Under the pieces are notes generated by a model that did not search any database, had not been told where the DNA came from, and was given only the letters and a program-made list of their open reading frames with translations. A stretch of DNA of 64,000 nt from an uncultured Actinomycetota bacterium (GTDB lineage: Bacteria; Actinomycetota; Actinomycetes; JADGOV01), in NCBI GenBank assembly GCA_963814355.1, contig CAWFCZ010000018.1, positions 637,224 through 701,223 of the forward strand, in the 5' to 3' direction. Below are positions 39,007 to 53,769 of this stretch, piece after piece. Position 1 is the stretch's first letter. Each line of letters starts with the position of its first letter. The position numbers and the translations under genes were made by a program.

Positions 39007-39662
39007 TCAGGCTCTGATGGGTGGTCCGGTCGCGGCGGTGAAGAGCCGTTGCCAGGGTTCGGCCCAGGGCCAGGCGGCGGGCAGCCGCAGGGTTGATCGG
39101 CGGGCTGATCGGGTGAGTCGGGCTGCGACGCTGATCAGCTGCCGGCGGATGGTCGCTGTCGTCGCCTTCGTATGAATGGTCGAGGCCAGCGTTCCGACTG
39201 CGCGGGTGAGGTTGAAGGCCATCGCGGCCAGGACGAGCCAGGCCGAGTTGGCGGCGAAGTGCCCCGACGGCAGGTGCGCGAGCGGCCCGTTCTTCAGATC
39301 GGCGATGACCTGCTCGATGATTGCGTGACGGCGGTGATCACGTTCGGCCTGGAGCATCGGCAGCGGGAGTCGGTGAACACCGCGTGGTGGCGCCAGACCC
39401 GGAACAGCTCACCTTGGGCGTTCACCTGGACGTGGTCGGGGTTCTGGTCACGGACTCGCCGCACGATCAGCCGTCCCGTGACCAGCCGGGATTTTGGTTT
39501 GGAGGTGAACGCGGTGAACGGCACCTCGGCGACCTCGGCATGGCGCGTCGATGACCCAGAAGCCCCCCTGGCACCAGGCCAGATTCGAGGTCCCGAGACC
39601 TTGAAGTGGATCCTCGAACTGCACGTTGAGCCCCGCACATACCGACCGACGACTAAGTCCAC
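39007..39662 (-). mobile_element. 5'-truncated IS1380-family transposase fragment (C-terminal about 220 aa, itself frameshifted). A different family member from the 9-10.7 kb copy.
   Basis: ..LIVRRVRDQNPDHVQVNAQGELFRVWRHHAVFTDS.. (39294-39662 ORF) and ..IEQVIADLKNGPLAHLPSGHFAANSAWLVLAAMAFNLTRA..TLRLPAAWPWA.. (39007-39357 ORF). Confidence 0.6.
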
Positions 39663-39840
39663 GCCAACCGCGAGCGCCCAACCTCAGCCCCCGTCGATCA
39701 TGGCGGGGGCTTCTTCATGTGCCTGGCTCCAATCCTCCACTCAGGCCCGTTCAACCCCTCCTCCAGACGTAGATCCCTCCACGGCCCACGCTCAGTGCAC
39801 CATGATCACTAGTAAATCGCTAGAAAATCCGGAAAGCAGA

Positions 39841-48312: not shown

Positions 48313-49335
48313 ATGCGTCCGGTCTTCACCACGGCCCTGCGGCGCCGCTGGCGTGACGAGGAGACCCTGCAGTTCGGGACGGACCCAGCGGTCGCGGTCG
48401 TGCTCACCGGACTGCGCCCGAGTGACCGTGCCGTCCTCGGCTTACTCGACGGCGTCCGCACTGAGGACGAGATTGTCGCGGCCGCCGCCGGTTGTGGAGT
48501 CGCACCCGGCGACGCGCGCCATCTGCTGGGCACCCTGCACCGGTCTGGCGTGTTGGAGGATGCGGGCTCCTCCGTCTCGCTACAGCTGACGCCCGCGGCG
48601 GATCGCGAACGGCTGCGGTGTGAACTGGCTCAACTCTCGCTGTCCTGCGCCGAACCGGGCGCTGCCTCCAGGGCGCTGAGCGCCCGGCGACACGCCCGGG
48701 TCCTCGTCCTCGGCGGGGGTCGACTCGGGGCGCCGATCGCGGCCCTGCTCGATGCGGGCGGGGTGGGCAGCGTCGAGGTGTGGGACCCGGTTCCGGCCGG
48801 CCCGGCAGACGCCGTGCCCGGCGGTCTTCGGAGCACAGACGTCGGCCGGCCCCGCCAGGACGCCGTTGTGGACCTGGTGAGCCGGGCTCGGATTCGCCGA
48901 CGCAGCGGCAGCCCGCTCGATGTCGCCCTCGTCGTCCTGGCGCCGCCACCGAGCCACGACGTCACCACGGCGGAACGGCTGCGGCGCGACGGCGTGCCGC
49001 ATCTCGCCGTCGACACCGTCGATGGCGCCGGCATCGTCGGTCCGCTGGTGCTGCCGGGCCGATCGGCGTGCCTACGCTGCCTGGAGGCGCACCGCCGGGA
49101 CCGGGATCCCACCTGGGTGGCCGCCGAGGGCGATGGTCGGCCGGAGACCGCCGGCAGCGCGCTGGCGGTGGCCATCGCTGCGCTGGCCACGATGCAAGCC
49201 CTGACCTTCCTCGACGAACCGCACACCGGTACCGTCCCGGCGACGCTCGATGGCACCCTGGAGCTACGGCCGCCGGATTGGCGGCTTCGCCGCCGTACCT
49301 GGCCACCGCACCCGGACTGCGGCTGCGCCGGCTGA
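48313..49335 (+). CDS. ThiF/MoeB-like E1-type adenylyltransferase-family protein
   Basis: Rossmann VLVLGGGRLGAPIAALLDAGGVGSVEVWD. CLRC and C-terminal CGC zinc motifs. Confidence 0.5.
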   Translation: MRPVFTTALRRRWRDEETLQFGTDPAVAVVLTGLRPSDRAVLGLLDGVRTEDEIVAAAAGCGVAPGDARHLLGTLHRSGVLEDAGSSVSLQLTPAADRERLRCELAQLSLSCAEPGAASRALSARRHARVLVLGGGRLGAPIAALLDAGGVGSVEVWDPVPAGPADAVPGGLRSTDVGRPRQDAVVDLVSRARIRRRSGSPLDVALVVLAPPPSHDVTTAERLRRDGVPHLAVDTVDGAGIVGPLVLPGRSACLRCLEAHRRDRDPTWVAAEGDGRPETAGSALAVAIAALATMQALTFLDEPHTGTVPATLDGTLELRPPDWRLRRRTWPPHPDCGCAG

Positions 49336-49369
49336 GGCGACGTGGGCCGGCAGGACGCAGAATGGAGCC

Positions 49370-50920
49370 GTGAGCGACCTTCCGCGGTGGGCCATCGGGC
49401 GATCGGCGAAGCTGGCCAGCCTGCCCCTCGGGTTCGCCGGGCGAGCGACGCTGGGAGTCGGCAAGCGCCTCGGCGGGCGCCCGGCCGAGATCGTGGCGAC
49501 GGAGGTGCAGCAACGCACCGCCGATCAGATCTTCCGTGTGCTGGGCGAGCTCAAGGGCGGAGCGATGAAGTTCGGGCAGGCGCTGTCCGTTTTCGAAGCT
49601 GCGCTGCCCGAAGACATCGCCGCGCCGTACCGGCAGGCCCTCACCAAACTCCAGGAGGCCGCGCCGCCGCTGCCCGCGGCGAGCGTGCACCGGGTCCTGG
49701 CCGAACAGCTCGGCGGTAACTGGCGCCGGCGCTTCCGTGCGTTCGACGACCGGCCGGCGGCTGCGGCTTCCATCGGCCAGGTACATCGCGCGGTGTGGGC
49801 CGACGGAACGACGGTGGCCGTGAAAATTCAGTACCCCGGCGCCGGGAAGGCGCTGCTCTCCGACCTCAACCAGCTGGCCCGGATCGCCCGGCTCTTCGCC
49901 GTCATCTCCCCCGGCCTCGACGTCAAGCCGCTCATCGCCGAACTCAAGGCCCGGGTCGCCGAGGAGCTGGACTACTCACTCGAGGCCGCCGCACAACGTG
50001 CGTTCGCGGAGGCATACGCGGACGATCCGGATTTCCGCGTGCCGCGAGTGGTCGCCAACGCCCGCCGCATACTCGTCACCGAATGGGTCGACGGTACGCC
50101 GCTGTCCGCGATCATTCGGGACGGGACTACGGGGGAGCGCGACCGGGCCGGGCTGCTGCTGGTCCGGTTCCTGTTCTCCGGCCCCAGCCGGGCCGGCATG
50201 CTGCACGCCGACCCGCACCCGGGAAACTTCCGGTTGTTGCCGGACGGACGGCTCGCGGTGATCGACTACGGTGCGGTGAACCGGCTGCCCGGCGGACTGC
50301 CCCCGCTCATCGGCGAGGCCACCCGGCTGGTGATGGTGGGCGACAGCGAGGCCGTGCTCACCCGGTTGCGCGGCGAAGGATTCGTCTCCCCCGATGTGCA
50401 CGTCGACCCGGAACCGATCCTCGATTATCTGCGGCCGATCATCGCACCGGTCACCCAGGAGACCTTCACGTTTTCCCGCGAGTGGCTGCGGGGCGAGGCG
50501 GTACGCCTGGCGGACCCGCGGTCACCGGCCGCGCAGTTGGGCCGCCAGTTGAACCTGCCGCCGTCCTACCTGCTCATTCACCGGGTCACCCTGGGCGGCG
50601 TGGGCGTGCTGTGCCAACTGGGCAGCACCGGAGCCTTTCGGGCCGAGATGGAACGCTGGCTACCCGGGTTCCGCGCGAGCCCGGTCGCCGAGCCGAAGCT
50701 GAAGCGGCCGCGGGCGCCCCGGCGCGTTCCCACGCCGGAGCAGACCGCGATCGTCGAACCGCCGGTGGAGGACACTGTGCTGAGCCCTCCGGCGGATACA
50801 TCCTCGGCGCCCCGGTCAGTGCACAGCGGCCAGCGCCAGGCGCGCCCGACCGGACGCGCTCTCCGCTCGCCGCTGCCATCGGCGAGCGGCGACGACGCGA
50901 GCCGACCGACTGTCCAGTAG
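49370..50920 (+). CDS. ABC1/UbiB-family atypical protein kinase (Rv3197-like)
   Basis: ..LGELKGGAMKFGQALSV.., ..AASIGQVHRAVWADGTTVAVKIQYPG.., ..HADPHPGNF.. motifs. Start GTG 49370. Confidence 0.75.
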   Translation: MSDLPRWAIGRSAKLASLPLGFAGRATLGVGKRLGGRPAEIVATEVQQRTADQIFRVLGELKGGAMKFGQALSVFEAALPEDIAAPYRQALTKLQEAAPPLPAASVHRVLAEQLGGNWRRRFRAFDDRPAAAASIGQVHRAVWADGTTVAVKIQYPGAGKALLSDLNQLARIARLFAVISPGLDVKPLIAELKARVAEELDYSLEAAAQRAFAEAYADDPDFRVPRVVANARRILVTEWVDGTPLSAIIRDGTTGERDRAGLLLVRFLFSGPSRAGMLHADPHPGNFRLLPDGRLAVIDYGAVNRLPGGLPPLIGEATRLVMVGDSEAVLTRLRGEGFVSPDVHVDPEPILDYLRPIIAPVTQETFTFSREWLRGEAVRLADPRSPAAQLGRQLNLPPSYLLIHRVTLGGVGVLCQLGSTGAFRAEMERWLPGFRASPVAEPKLKRPRAPRRVPTPEQTAIVEPPVEDTVLSPPADTSSAPRSVHSGQRQARPTGRALRSPLPSASGDDASRPTVQ

Positions 50921-51027
50921 CGCCCTGCGCTCGGCGTCGCGCCGGCGGGCCCTGGCCAGGTCTTCATGCAACAGCGACATCGTGGTACTCCTGCCTGGTT
51001 GATTGTTCGTGGACACAGCCGCATGGG

Positions 51028-51300
51028 TCACGCGGCAACCTCTTTGCGTGGCCGACCCCGGGGGCGCTTGCGCGCGTGCACGGCGCCGGCCAGAATCAGC
51101 TCCCCGCCCCAGACACCCCACGGCTCCTGGCGTTCAAGCGCGGTCAGCAGGCATTGGGACTGGACGGGGCAGGGGACGCAGACCGCCTTTGCGCGCTCGA
51201 CGTCGGCGGGTGATTCGGCGAAGAACAAATCGGGATCAACACCCTTGCAGGGCAGGGTTGCGCCCTTGCGTTGGCTCGGGCCGGACTGGACCTGTTTCAT
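51028..51300 (-). CDS. whiB7: WhiB7 (WhiB-like Fe-S transcription factor with C-terminal AT-hook)
   Basis: LPCKGVDPDLFF..C..CPVQSQC..EPWGVWGGE core and C-terminal RKRPRGRPRK AT-hook. About 91 aa from ATG 51300. Confidence 0.85.
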   Translation of the reverse strand: MKQVQSGPSQRKGATLPCKGVDPDLFFAESPADVERAKAVCVPCPVQSQCLLTALERQEPWGVWGGELILAGAVHARKRPRGRPRKEVAA

Positions 51301-51367
51301 GATCGGGTGCCACCTCCTCGTGGACTCGGTTCTTGGAGGGGTGAATCGCGGATTTGAGACAGCGAAA

Positions 51368-51397
51368 GGCCGTGAATCCCGGTTGGGTTTCACGGCC
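51368..51397 (-). terminator. Leader attenuator hairpin within the whiB7 5' UTR (GGCCGTGAA-12 nt-TTCACGGCC, then a U-rich tract)
   Basis: Perfect 9-bp stem. Minus-strand downstream sequence tttcgctgtctc. Located between the uORF and the whiB7 start. Confidence 0.6.
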
Positions 51398-51502
51398 TGG
51401 AGGCGCAGCTTCGGAGGAGGACTATCCGGAGGGTCTCCAGGCAGCGGGCCGCGCCGGGCCGACGAACACGGTCGGCAAGAGCCGCACGTTCGACCCGCCG
51501 GT

Positions 51503-51583
51503 CACTCGGTTACGGGCAGCGGCGCGGTTGGCCATCAGGTCCGCGCGCAGCCCGGCGCGCTTCGGCGCGATGATGTTCCGCAT
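51503..51583 (-). CDS. whiB7 leader uORF (26 aa, MRNIIAPKRAGLRADLMANRAAARNRV) with GGGAGG SD
   Basis: SD plus ATG plus ORF sit upstream of the hairpin. Upstream is an AT-rich stretch (gagaaaaattcg) next to a TTGCTC -35-like hexamer. Confidence 0.5.
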
Positions 51584-51705
51584 CGAGGCACCTCCCTATG
51601 CTGCGCGGCGTGCGGCGGCCCGATGCCGCCGTGATGTGAGCAGTACGGTACGGGTCCGAGCGCCTGTGAGCAAACGAATTTTTCTCAGCGCCGGACCGAT
51701 CCCGC

Positions 51706-53769
51706 CTAGCTGCTCCGCTCGGCGGGGCCGGCATCGGCTACCACCATCTCGGAGCCCACCCCGTCGGAGCCCACCACGGCCAGCACGCCCGGGCCGTAGT
51801 CGTGCAGCTTCCGCGCTCCGATGCCGCCGATGGCCGCCAGCTCGGCCAGGGTTCCCGGCTTGACCCGCGCGATGGCGCCCAGCGTCGCGTCGGTGAATAC
51901 GCAGAAAGCCGGCTGCTTGCGCTCTCTCGCCTGTTCCAGGCGCCACCGCCGAAGCCGCTCGAACAGCGCACCGTCCGCCGGGGCTGCCGGCCGGTGTCCG
52001 GGCCCTTCCCGATTCCGGCCCCGGGAGGGCGGGGTCGGCCGTAGGCCATCCAGGAACCGGCTCGGCGACCGCCCCCGCCGCCCACCCGGGGCCCTGGACA
52101 GTGCCCAGGACAGGGCGAGATGGCGCTGCGCCCGGGTGATGCCCACGTAGAACAGCCGCCGCTCTTCGGCGATCTGGGCGTCGGTGGTGGCATAGCTGAT
52201 CGGCAGCGTGCCCTCGGTCAGCCCGACCAGGAAGACGGCGTCCCACTCCAGACCCTTTGCGGCGTGTAGGGATGCCAGCGCGACCCCGTCGACCGGTGGC
52301 GCGTCCTGAGCCGCCGCCCGCTGGGCCAGTTCGGCGGCGAAAGCGGGCAGGTCGGTCTCGGGCTCGGCAGCCGCCATGTCTTCCGCGAGACGCACGATGG
52401 CGCCCACCGACTCCCAGCGCTCCCGCGCGGCTCCGGGGCTCGCCGGCGGTGTCCGGGACCAGCCGGCCGAGGACAGCACCGCCTCGACATCGGCGACCAA
52501 CCGGCCGCTCGACCCGCCGGCGTCCCCTGCCGAGCTCGGGGCCGGCTCCTCTCCGAACCGGCCGGCGGCCCGCAGCAACACCATTGCCCGGCGCACCTCG
52601 GGTCGTTCGAAGAACCGCTCCGCGCCGCGGAGCAGGTACGGCACCCCGGCGTCGGCAAACGCCTGCTCGTAGGCCTGAGACTGGGCGTTGATCCGGTACA
52701 GCACGGCGATGTCCCTGGCCGCCGTCCCGCCAGTGATCAACCGTTGGCAGGCGGCGGCGGTGGCGGCCGCCTCGGCGGGCTCGTCGGGATACTCGCGAAA
52801 GGTCGGCGGCGGGCCGGCGGGCCGCTGCGCGGTCAGCGGCAGGCGCTCACCGACCGGCCCGCGGTTGCGGACCGCATTGGCGAGGGCAACGACCTCCGGG
52901 GTCGAACGGTAGTCCCTGACGAGCCGTACCACGGTGGCGTTCGGGAAGCGCCGCGGAAACTCCAGCAGGTACGACGACCGGGCGCCGGTGAAGGTGTAGA
53001 TCGTCTGGCCGGCGTCGCCGACCACGCAGAGGTCGTCCCGGTCGCCGAGCCAGGCGTCGAGCAACTGCTGTTGCAAGGGGTTGACGTCCTGGTACTCGTC
53101 CACTACGAAGTACCGGTAACGGCCACGGACCTCGGCCGCGACGTGCCGGTTGTCCGAGATCACCCCGGCCGCCAGCAGCAGCAGGTCTTCGAAGTCCACC
53201 ACTCCTACGGCGGTCTTGACCTCCTCGTACGCGGCCGCCACGGCGGCCACCTCATCGGGTGGTAGCGGCGGCTGACGGCCGGCCCGAGCGGCGGCCGAGG
53301 AGTAGGCCGTGGGCGCGGTGAGCGATGCCTTGGCCCACTCGAGCTCCCCGGTCAGGTCACGCAGCACGGTTCCGCCCACCGGGCGGTGCAGGGTGGTTGA
53401 CGCCGCCTGGGCCACCAGCCGAAGTTTGCTGTCGACCACCCTCGGCAGGGCGACGCCGAGCGCCTTGGGATAGAAGTAGCCGAGCTGACGCAGAGCGGCG
53501 GAGTGGAAGGTCCTGGCCTGCACCCCCGGCACGCCGAGTGCCCGCAGCCTGGTGCGCATTTCGGCCGCCGCCCTGGTGGTGAAGGTCACGGCCTGAATCT
53601 CCGATACCGGCACGGCCCCGGAGTGCACTGCGTAGGCGATCCGCGCGGTGATCGCCCGCGTCTTGCCCGTGCCAGCTCCGGCGAGTACGCAGACCGGACC
53701 GCGAACGGCTTCGGCGACGGCCCGCTGCTCGCCGTCCAAGCCGGCCAACAGGTCGGCGCACACACTCAC
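51706..53769 (-). CDS. uvrD2: ATP-dependent DNA helicase UvrD2 (UvrD-like with C-terminal HRDC domain)
   Basis: GAGTGKT Walker A, UvrD motifs, C-terminal ..AFCVFTDATLGAIA..LAELAAIGGIG.. HRDC. Adjacent to whiB7 as in mycobacteria. Confidence 0.85.
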   Translation of the reverse strand: MSVCADLLAGLDGEQRAVAEAVRGPVCVLAGAGTGKTRAITARIAYAVHSGAVPVSEIQAVTFTTRAAAEMRTRLRALGVPGVQARTFHSAALRQLGYFYPKALGVALPRVVDSKLRLVAQAASTTLHRPVGGTVLRDLTGELEWAKASLTAPTAYSSAAARAGRQPPLPPDEVAAVAAAYEEVKTAVGVVDFEDLLLLAAGVISDNRHVAAEVRGRYRYFVVDEYQDVNPLQQQLLDAWLGDRDDLCVVGDAGQTIYTFTGARSSYLLEFPRRFPNATVVRLVRDYRSTPEVVALANAVRNRGPVGERLPLTAQRPAGPPPTFREYPDEPAEAAATAAACQRLITGGTAARDIAVLYRINAQSQAYEQAFADAGVPYLLRGAERFFERPEVRRAMVLLRAAGRFGEEPAPSSAGDAGGSSGRLVADVEAVLSSAGWSRTPPASPGAARERWESVGAIVRLAEDMAAAEPETDLPAFAAELAQRAAAQDAPPVDGVALASLHAAKGLEWDAVFLVGLTEGTLPISYATTDAQIAEERRLFYVGITRAQRHLALSWALSRAPGGRRGRSPSRFLDGLRPTPPSRGRNREGPGHRPAAPADGALFERLRRWRLEQARERKQPAFCVFTDATLGAIARVKPGTLAELAAIGGIGARKLHDYGPGVLAVVGSDGVGSEMVVADAGPAERSS

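Follow-up and report, generated by a model that had tools for sequence, protein, structure and literature searches.

Nearly all mechanistic work on whiB7 has been carried out in Mycobacterium. Attenuation mediated by a uORF (upstream open reading frame) and autoregulation through the AT-hook of the protein have been described for whiB7/wblC (PMC3905903; 10.1101/2023.06.02.543512), and two other reports also belong to the literature on this mechanism (10.1101/2025.10.10.681568; PMC13236596). Attenuation of whiB7/wblC is also treated in PMC11550727, citing Lee, Lee & Roe 2022, and the mycobacterial leader is the subject of Burian et al. 2012, Lee, Lee & Roe 2022 and Poulton et al. 2023/2024. In the 64-kb stretch of DNA analysed here (the window), the leader of whiB7 is very likely a control region of this same whiB7/wblC type, with an auto-activated promoter, a uORF and a terminator/antiterminator switch. 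It is an ordinary instance of an already known control region and its novelty is low. All of the leader features claimed in an earlier note on this DNA were found on the minus strand, to which every feature located below belongs, with two details corrected (the length of the uORF and the U-tract).

The regulated gene (51028..51300, 90 aa) is a true WhiB7/WblC orthologue. Its product carries a WhiB domain (Pfam PF02467, E = 2.2e-17), and in an alignment of 28 orthologues the four cysteines of the Fe-S-cluster type (C18, C41, C44, C50), the AT-hook RKRPRGRPRK (residues 77-86) and all but the final glutamate (E67) of EPWGVWGGE (residues 59-67) are invariant. The Pfam match, the cysteines and EPWGVWGG agree with the previous reading of the gene as whiB7 with a C-terminal AT-hook. 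The EPW motif and the G[VI]WGG turn form the contact to region 4 of SigA (PMC3905903). The gene order uvrD2, whiB7 and a convergent ABC1 kinase gene is the same in close relatives, and so is the ribosome-binding region of whiB7 (51301..51319), in which GAGGAGG (51319-51313) and a 12-nt spacer are invariant.

Direct reading of the sequence bore out the AT-rich block that had been placed beside TTGCTC and TACCGT hexamers. The block GAGAAAAATTCG (51675..51686) ends 1 nt (2 nt counting the A/T core) upstream of the -35 hexamer of a SigA-type promoter (51645..51673), which consists of TTGCTC (51673-51668), a 17-nt spacer and the -10 hexamer TACCGT (51650-51645). The hexamers are conserved in close relatives, and among 58 other actinobacterial whiB7 loci, which served as our comparative set, 50 have an A/T block ahead of TTGnnn; the gap between block and -35 at other actinobacterial whiB7 loci is 3-4 nt. 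On the two strands of the window (128 kb), the pattern of AT-block, -35 and -10 occurs a single time, at the whiB7 leader. A scan of 50500-52500 for strict sigma-70 consensus promoters made no call at all and so left the whiB7 leader promoter unmarked. From the role reported for such blocks (PMC3905903), we infer that GAGAAAAATTCG is bound by the AT-hook of WhiB7, which would make the gene autoregulated. Transcription is predicted to start near 51638. The untranslated part of the leader folds into a 5'-proximal stem-loop (CGGCGGC-AUCGG-GCCGCCG, 51613..51631), which may act as an mRNA stabiliser; by eye, its stem is kept despite base changes in relatives, for example as CAGCGGC/GCCGCUG in locus L082.

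The uORF comprises 53 codons and a TAG (MRNIIAPKRAGLRADLMANRAAARNRVTGGSNVRLLPTVFVGPARPAAWRPSG, 51422..51583), as indicated by its reading frame and by its relatives, and its Shine-Dalgarno sequence AGGGAGG (51591..51597) stands 7 nt ahead of the ATG at 51583. A uORF of 26 codons with a consensus Shine-Dalgarno (51503-51583) had been proposed; the Shine-Dalgarno and the start codon hold, while the length and the end were wrong because the TGA used (51504-51502) belongs to the +1 frame. In the frame of the uORF, 51505-51503 reads GTG, and no stop is met until the TAG at 51424-51422. A uORF was found in all 58 other whiB7 loci, in 52 of them with a GGAGG Shine-Dalgarno, and its stop precedes the hairpin by 17-38 nt, the 24 nt of the window being the median. 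In close relatives the uORF has 50-57 codons and shares both the frame and the C-terminus AAW[RS]P[SF]G*, and the sole length difference in an alignment over 26 uORF codons is one extra codon, TTC, in locus L084, a multiple of three. Conservation of the uORF, which had been named as a check, is therefore present, and translation of the uORF appears probable from these comparisons.

An alanine-rich uORF (25-40% Ala) has been reported as universal, as a described and non-defining property (10.1101/2023.06.02.543512). With 19% Ala, the uORF of the window lies below this range; close relatives have 14-19%, and the two long neighbours uvrD2 and the ABC1 kinase gene have 14-18%, relative to which the uORF showed no significant enrichment (P = 0.34). 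The alanine sensing of mycobacteria is therefore not evident here. In the comparative set, 44 non-mycobacterial loci have a median of 14% and 13 mycobacterial ones a median of 31% (range 23-40%); on this comparison, alanine enrichment looks like a mycobacterial trait and not a universal one. As raw percentages, arginine makes up 17% of the uORF, against about 10% for the genes around it.

Between the uORF and whiB7 lies a hairpin with its tail (UUCGCUGUCUC, 51355..51398), which we predict to be a Rho-independent terminator with a U-run of only UUU and a U-rich tail. A perfect 9-bp hairpin followed by a U-tract had been described at 51368-51397. The stem was confirmed, with arms GGCCGTGAA/TTCACGGCC at 51397-51368 that can be extended to 10 + 3 bp (51398-51367), and the U-tract in part: three U's follow and then CGCUGUCUC, the paired U at 51367 completing the UUU run. 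The energy of the hairpin is -23.5 kcal/mol (z = -6.2), and none of 200 shuffles was as stable. A consensus terminator scan (50500-52500) did not call the site, because its rules demand a shorter loop and a longer T-run. In an alignment of 30 taxa, pairing holds for 95% of the cells and four pairs show compensatory change, and the core GGCC[GA][CU]G[GA]... is conserved in other whiB7 loci, so that the hairpin covaries and, as the earlier note had asked of it, is conserved in orthologous leaders. A second, similar hairpin at 39866-39843 (minus strand) was considered as another element of this kind and turned out to be the terminator after a tRNA-Met gene.

The hairpin might instead be a constitutive terminator or insulator, for uvrD2 or for a stand-alone gene encoding a 53-codon small protein, with whiB7 transcribed from its own promoter. 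Automatic callers indeed call the 53-codon ORF as a gene, and thermodynamically the hairpin prevails in all folds. However, the distance from the hairpin to the Shine-Dalgarno of whiB7 is about 65 nt and a scan finds no promoter-like site there. Moreover, the uORF peptide is not conserved beyond its last 6-7 residues, which coincide with the RNA stem, and between taxa it varies in length from 35 to 160 codons; in Frankiales, where the stem is altered and AWS has become PRG, the pairing is retained and the peptide is not. Constitutive termination also leaves both the fixed spacing between stop and hairpin and an alternative helix at this site unexplained, and we consider it very unlikely.

The alternative helix, which the earlier note had not identified, belongs to an antiterminator hairpin (51395..51442), recognised by local folds, compensatory variants and RNAalifold. 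Its outer stem of 8 bp pairs GCCUGGAG (51442-51435) with CUCCAGGC (51402-51395), and its inner stem pairs CGGA (51428-51425) with UCCG (51415-51412). The uORF stop UAG (51424-51422) opens the apical loop, and the 3' arm shares 4 nt (51398-51395) with the base of the terminator stem. Folding had been suggested as a check for terminator versus antiterminator alternatives, and both helices were found, the whole-leader minimum free energy (MFE) structure showing the terminator only. At -17.8 kcal/mol, the antiterminator is less stable than the terminator (-22.9 kcal/mol), and the weakest among four relatives compared; with or without a masked ribosome footprint, it was absent from whole-leader MFE folds, in which the terminator was always there. 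Thermodynamics alone therefore cannot discriminate between the two states. As long-range GC pairing dominates the whole-leader folds, we relied on local folds of the nascent RNA, in which the antiterminator forms in the window and in three relatives, and on comparison.

A single 8-bp helix in one GC-rich sequence is not significant (p about 0.25; single-sequence tests about 0.1-0.5). A column-wise count of antiterminator pairs in a MAFFT alignment (A2) gave 76% paired, no better than shuffles, and was replaced because many rows of the alignment have the 3' arm shifted by 1-2 columns. The replacement tests were a position-constrained helix search in each sequence and RNAalifold at clade level. 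The former detected helices of at least 7 bp at the antiterminator position in 27 of 58 loci versus 2.9 expected from shuffles; the latter, on 7 close relatives, recovered the outer and the inner stem with 3 compensatory pairs. Compensatory variants occur in loci L025, L030, L032, L036 and L071, with arms such as CCUCGAGG/CCUCGAGG, CCUCAAG/CUUGAGG and CCUGGUG/CACCAGG. Over the comparative set, the antiterminator occupies at least three different registers, while the terminator core that they surround is invariant. A putative anti-antiterminator, GGCGCGGC:GCUGCGCC (51456-51449 with 51410-51403), folds in the window and was dropped because the helix was not recovered in L082 or L084.

It is also conceivable that control is mainly translational, with the CUCC segment at 51344-51336 sequestering the ribosome-binding site of whiB7 and the leader hairpin modulating RNA stability only. 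In a single-sequence fold, CACCCCUCC pairs with GGAGGUGG, and close relatives show hardly any variation in the CUCC and the whole ribosome-binding region; however, ribosome binding as such explains this invariance equally well, and RNAalifold on 7 relatives neither recovered the pairing nor revealed compensatory change in the region. Since translational control would leave the conserved terminator/antiterminator pair unexplained as well, we regard it as very unlikely to be the main mechanism. An anti-Shine-Dalgarno hairpin before whiB7 is possible in itself, yet it is without covariation.

The element was also recognised by a profile of sequence and structure. A covariance model (R1) built from 25 leaders of other taxa, a set that left out the window and its close relatives, gave one full-length match in the window (51446..51354, 53.8 bits, E = 5e-12), while the next locus reached 17.5 bits and the same hairpin read on the opposite strand 22.9 bits. 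Rfam release 15 holds no family for the whiB7 leader, and its search returned chance matches only (E > 2). The claimed architecture of a translation-sensing attenuator is thus supported by both the R1 match and the layout shared with other whiB7 leaders.

The switch most likely acts in the way known from mycobacteria and Streptomyces, which here would run as follows. In the basal state, the SigA-type promoter (51673-51645) would fire weakly to give a leader of about 340 nt, in which the strong Shine-Dalgarno would drive translation of the 53-codon uORF. If translation is unimpeded, the leading ribosome should reach the UAG at 51424 and cover the 5' strand of the antiterminator (51442-51425). 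With this strand inside the ribosome, the 3' strand (51402-51395) would be free, so that the GC-rich hairpin 51398-51367 could form and RNA polymerase would terminate around 51366-51356, ahead of whiB7. In the induced state, translation inhibitors or uncharged tRNA may make ribosomes stall or lag earlier in the uORF, and the GCCUGGAG:CUCCAGGC antiterminator would form first; as this helix ties up the lowest four pairs of the terminator stem, beside the U-run, polymerase would read into whiB7. Newly made WhiB7 would then bind SigA region 4 and, with its AT-hook on the A/T block upstream of the -35, amplify its own transcription. Under this model, changing GCCUGGAG to GCCACGAG should abolish induction and a compensating change in CUCCAGGC should restore it.

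Rho and translated uORFs shape premature termination in M. tuberculosis. On this precedent, translation of the uORF could protect the transcript from Rho or mRNA decay, its loss triggering Rho-dependent termination. Translation inhibitors, however, are known to induce whiB7, the reverse of what such a mechanism would bring about, and a conserved GC-rich hairpin with a U-run and a covarying antiterminator are hallmarks of an intrinsic attenuator, which renders a role of Rho or decay extremely unlikely. The whiB7 switch, which joins an auto-amplified promoter to a ribosome-sensing attenuator, is intact in an uncultured high-GC actinobacterium distant from the model species, so that this organism can be expected to have inducible intrinsic resistance against drugs that target the ribosome.

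The small gene after whiB7 is the sole item here that could open a new question. A conserved, unannotated ORF of 54 codons (50816..50980) begins 47 nt downstream of whiB7. Its differences at codon positions 1, 2 and 3 (77:49:241) reveal purifying selection. The product is arginine-rich with an invariant AARRWQRRAE motif, is predicted to be a single long helix and falls into no family of Pfam or NCBIfam. Of the ORF's named relatives, the nearest comes from a Frankiaceae MAG. The ORF adjoins whiB7 in Streptomyces, Kitasatospora, Nocardioides, Kribbella, Frankiales, Pseudonocardiaceae and the organism of the window, and is found beside whiB7 in most non-mycobacterial loci. No terminator-like site was detected between the whiB7 stop and the small ORF, and the two are probably co-transcribed, which would place the ORF under the same attenuator. 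Tentatively, and with the odds somewhat against it, the attenuator may control whiB7 and the 54-aa gene as a two-gene unit, whose second product could serve the WhiB7 response as a partner or effector that has yet to be described.

Compared with the described leaders, the locus resembles that of M. tuberculosis and M. smegmatis, which has an AT-rich block closely preceding a SigA-type -35, a long leader, a uORF with a strong Shine-Dalgarno whose stop lies about 20-25 nt ahead of the hairpin, the hairpin core GGCC-R-Y-G-R...Y-C-R-Y-GGCC and a WhiB7 with EPW and AT-hook. The mycobacterial antiterminator, however, pairs GUCCGUGG with CCACGGAC and takes up about 11 nt of the terminator arm, against 4 nt for GCCUGGAG:CUCCAGGC in the window; besides the richer alanine content of their uORFs, mycobacteria differ in that no 54-aa ORF was detected beside whiB7 in the Mycobacterium loci. 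The leaders of Streptomyces coelicolor wblC (SCO5190) and of related Streptomyces and Kitasatospora share the order of promoter, uORF and hairpin, a CCCUGGAG...CUCCAGGG helix at the position of the window's antiterminator and the small downstream ORF. They differ by an additional, longer sequence that mimics the 3' arm of the terminator, UUCCGCGGCCCUG, and can cover 11 nt of the 5' arm, and by a distance from hairpin to whiB7 of about 250 nt compared with about 65 nt in the window.

As in the trp and ilvB attenuators and in M. tuberculosis ilvB1 (PMC13236596), the position of the ribosome would select between mutually exclusive antiterminator and terminator hairpins, and a ribosome at the stop codon would mask the 5' strand of the antiterminator. 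In contrast to these classical attenuators, the uORF lacks a series of regulatory codons that specify a single amino acid, and no conserved '1:2' anti-antiterminator helix was found in the whiB7 leaders of the relatives compared; being long (53 codons), the uORF would make the element sense general translation speed. Relief of premature termination or of ribosome-binding-site occlusion by a drug-stalled ribosome is also known from the erm leaders and from rli53/lmo0919 (PMC11550727). Those systems use short leader peptides with specific arrest motifs, each for one resistance gene, whereas the whiB7 element controls a transcription factor that amplifies its own expression and then turns on a regulon.

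The gene at 51300..51028 on the minus strand, which also carries every leader element described here, encodes a 90-aa protein that matches Pfam Whib (E = 2e-17) and contains four cysteines, EPWGVWGGE and the C-terminal AT-hook RKRPRGRPRK, in agreement with its earlier assignment as WhiB7. Four Cys, an EPWGVWGG-type turn and an AT-hook are the hallmarks of WhiB7 (PMC3905903), and all of them are invariant across 28 aligned orthologues, the exception being the final Glu of EPWGVWGGE. A UvrD-type helicase gene with an HRDC domain (uvrD2) lies upstream on the same strand and a convergent ABC1 kinase-like gene downstream, and this gene order is kept in close relatives (WhiB7 identity 73-84%). For comparison, 80 whiB7 loci were fetched from named genomes and MAGs, all encoding an AT-hook WhiB7; a simple hairpin pattern yielded 58 loci, which were used for the uORF, promoter and antiterminator counts, and terminator pairing was assessed on a 30-taxon alignment.

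The AT-rich promoter element proposed in the earlier note can be read directly from the sequence, with the A/T block GAGAAAAATTCG (51686-51675), the -35 hexamer TTGCTC (51673-51668), a 17-nt spacer and the -10 hexamer TACCGT (51650-51645). The layout (A/T block, 3-4 nt, TTGnnn, 16-18 nt, TAnnnT) recurs in 50 of the 58 leaders and occurs only once on both strands of the 64-kb window (69.7% GC), at the whiB7 leader itself.

The uORF had been described as 26 codons long with a consensus Shine-Dalgarno sequence (51503-51583). Its Shine-Dalgarno sequence, AGGGAGG (51597-51591, 7 nt before the ATG), and its ATG at 51583 stand, but the frame runs on to a TAG at 51424-51422 and comprises 53 codons; the TGA at 51504-51502, which would end it at 51503, belongs to the +1 frame. 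All 58 leaders contain a uORF (35-160 codons, median 67), with a GGAGG Shine-Dalgarno in 52 of them, and the gap between stop codon and hairpin is 17-38 nt (median 24, exactly the value in the window). The uORFs of the close relatives L082-L085 (50-57 codons) share the frame and the C-terminus AAW[RS]P[SF]G*, and the sole length difference over 26 aligned codons among close relatives is an extra codon, TTC, in L084, a multiple of three. Many non-mycobacterial uORFs terminate in ...AW[SR]PP[VI]*, including a di-proline.

The 9-bp arms of the hairpin, GGCCGTGAA/TTCACGGCC (51397-51368), were noted earlier as a perfect stem with a U-tract; the arms hold and extend to 10 + 3 base pairs (51398-51367), but the U-tract amounts to UUU followed by CGCUGUCUC, and a consensus terminator scan makes no call at the hairpin. 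Its folding energy is -23.5 kcal/mol (z = -6.2; none of 200 shuffles folded as well). The core GGCC-R-Y-G-R...Y-C-R-Y-GGCC lies 93-273 nt ahead of the first WhiB7 cysteine codon in the 58 loci. Pairing is 95% intact over the 30 taxa, with compensatory changes at four pairs, and the window contributes its own, GUGA/UCAC replacing GCGG/CCGC. Both the uORF and the hairpin are conserved in orthologous leaders. When a covariance model was trained on 25 leaders, with the window and its close relatives left out, it matched the window once at full length (51446..51354, 53.8 bits, E = 5e-12). Apart from this hairpin read on the opposite strand (22.9 bits), the runner-up is an unrelated tRNA terminator at 17.5 bits. 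Rfam holds no family for the whiB7 leader element.

The earlier note had not identified the antiterminator. Its outer stem pairs GCCUGGAG with CUCCAGGC (51442-51435 : 51402-51395), and the 3′ arm shares 51398-51395, the lowest four nucleotides, with the terminator stem. The inner stem is CGGA:UCCG, and the apical loop it closes begins with the three bases of the uORF stop codon. In a single-sequence test one 8-bp helix does not reach significance in GC-rich RNA, so support for the antiterminator is comparative. The search was confined to the final 30 nt of the uORF and the 15 nt around the terminator base; a helix of at least 7 bp turned up there in 27 of the 58 loci, where 2.9 would be expected and none of 100 shuffles exceeded 8. 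The arms covary across taxa: CCUGGAG/CUCCAGG in most, CCUCGAGG/CCUCGAGG in three Frankiales loci, CCUCAAG/CUUGAGG in L032 and CCUGGUG/CACCAGG in L025. In the Frankiales the peptide reads PRG instead of AWS but the pairing is retained, which indicates that the RNA rather than the peptide is conserved. For seven close relatives, RNAalifold recovered the outer 8-bp stem together with an inner stem of 5 bp, in which three pairs show compensatory change. The antiterminator never appears in minimum-free-energy folds of the whole leader; nascent RNA, before the terminator 3′ arm exists, folds into it in the window and three relatives (-20 to -34 kcal/mol). In the window it is weaker than the terminator (-17.8 versus -22.9) and the weakest of the four relatives compared.

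These features, together with the covariance match, support the translation-sensing attenuator suggested earlier, through the following putative mechanism. Transcription would start near 51638 (predicted) and ribosomes would load at the strong uORF Shine-Dalgarno, the outcome being set by how far the leading ribosome travels. Unimpeded, it would arrive at the UAG at 51424. With the antiterminator 5′ arm placed 11-18 nt 5′ of the stop codon, a geometry matching L019, L047 and L062, the ribosome would then hold this arm and the whole inner stem inside it or at its exit. Its front edge would leave a gap of about 13 nt to the terminator, allowing this to form and end transcription before whiB7. 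Stalled or lagging translation would halt the ribosome earlier in the uORF; the antiterminator could then form and remove the four base pairs beside the U-run, and polymerase would read on into whiB7. SigA-bound WhiB7 would contact the A/T block, which directly precedes the -35 hexamer, through its AT-hook and so amplify its own synthesis.

It is unlikely that the hairpin is a constitutive terminator and that whiB7 has a promoter of its own, because a consensus scan of the 65 nt from the hairpin to the whiB7 Shine-Dalgarno shows nothing resembling a promoter. Purely translational control through an anti-Shine-Dalgarno segment is likewise improbable, as such pairing shows no covariation. Neither these two nor a Rho-based mechanism, also unlikely, would explain the covarying antiterminator and the fixed spacing. 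Two further segments, UUU(U)CGCUGUCUCAAA after the terminator (51353-51366) and the whiB7 ribosome-binding region GACCGAGUCCACRAGGAGGUGGCACCCGAUCAUG (51301-51335), are almost invariant in relatives with strongly diverged uORFs, and no covarying structure in the relatives' alignment accounts for this.

Downstream of whiB7, after 47 nt, lies a 54-codon ORF, MSLLHEDLARARRRDAERRALLDSRSARVVAARRWQRRAESASGRARLALAAVH (50980..50816, minus strand), with an AGGAG Shine-Dalgarno; in the same frame, a GTG at 51031 overlaps the stop codon of whiB7. Identity in close relatives is 78-85% (68-76% over longer aligned ORFs), and the counts of differences at first, second and third codon positions are 77:49:241, a third-position bias which argues that the ORF is protein-coding. 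By tblastn, about 40 fetched loci carry it right after whiB7, sometimes as two tandem copies, among them Streptomyces, Kitasatospora, Nocardioides, Kribbella, Frankiales and Pseudonocardiaceae; it adjoins whiB7 in most non-mycobacterial loci and was not found in the fetched Mycobacterium loci. The product, predicted as a single long helix (pLDDT 96), belongs to no Pfam or NCBIfam family and bears no label beyond 'hypothetical protein'. The ORF is probably co-transcribed with whiB7; in S. coelicolor, genes flanking wblC are reported to be co-regulated with it (PMC4398421). In the window it was missed by the gene caller of the protein collection, and it shares about 105 nt (50816-50920) with the 3′ end of the ABC1 kinase ORF (49250..50920, plus strand). 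The overlap recurs in L082; in L084 and L085 the kinase stops before the small ORF, so the low-complexity C-terminal tail of the window's kinase may be non-functional.

Elsewhere in the window, a terminator hairpin (39866-39843) comes after a tRNA-Met gene (39959-39883, minus strand); 39007-39840 then holds a lower-GC stretch and a truncated ORF (39357..39007) whose product, by eye, looked like a transposase C-terminus; the site beside tRNA-Met may be an insertion site.

Attenuation by a uORF and autoactivation by WhiB7 form the published model (PMC3905903; 10.1101/2023.06.02.543512; 10.1101/2025.10.10.681568; PMC13236596; PMC11550727, citing Lee, Lee & Roe 2022). An alanine-rich uORF has been reported as 'universal' (10.1101/2023.06.02.543512), but this does not hold in our locus set, where median alanine is 31% in 13 Mycobacterium-type loci versus 14% in 44 other actinobacterial loci, with start codons in distant taxa assigned automatically. 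The uORF in the window, at 19%, is close to its two long neighbours uvrD2 and the ABC1 kinase (14-18%; P = 0.34). Alanine enrichment thus looks like a feature of one lineage and not a universal one. One terminator core is combined with at least three antiterminator registers by clade: CCUGGAG:CUCCAGG at the stem base; GUCCGYGG, paired with the terminator's own 5′ arm, in mycobacterial and pseudonocardial loci; and, in a separate group, GUUUGGGA paired with the inner stem and loop (loci listed: L001, L031, L038, L046; L002-L018 and others; L011, L065, L078). Overall, the leader element in the window is an orthologue of the well-studied whiB7/wblC system.
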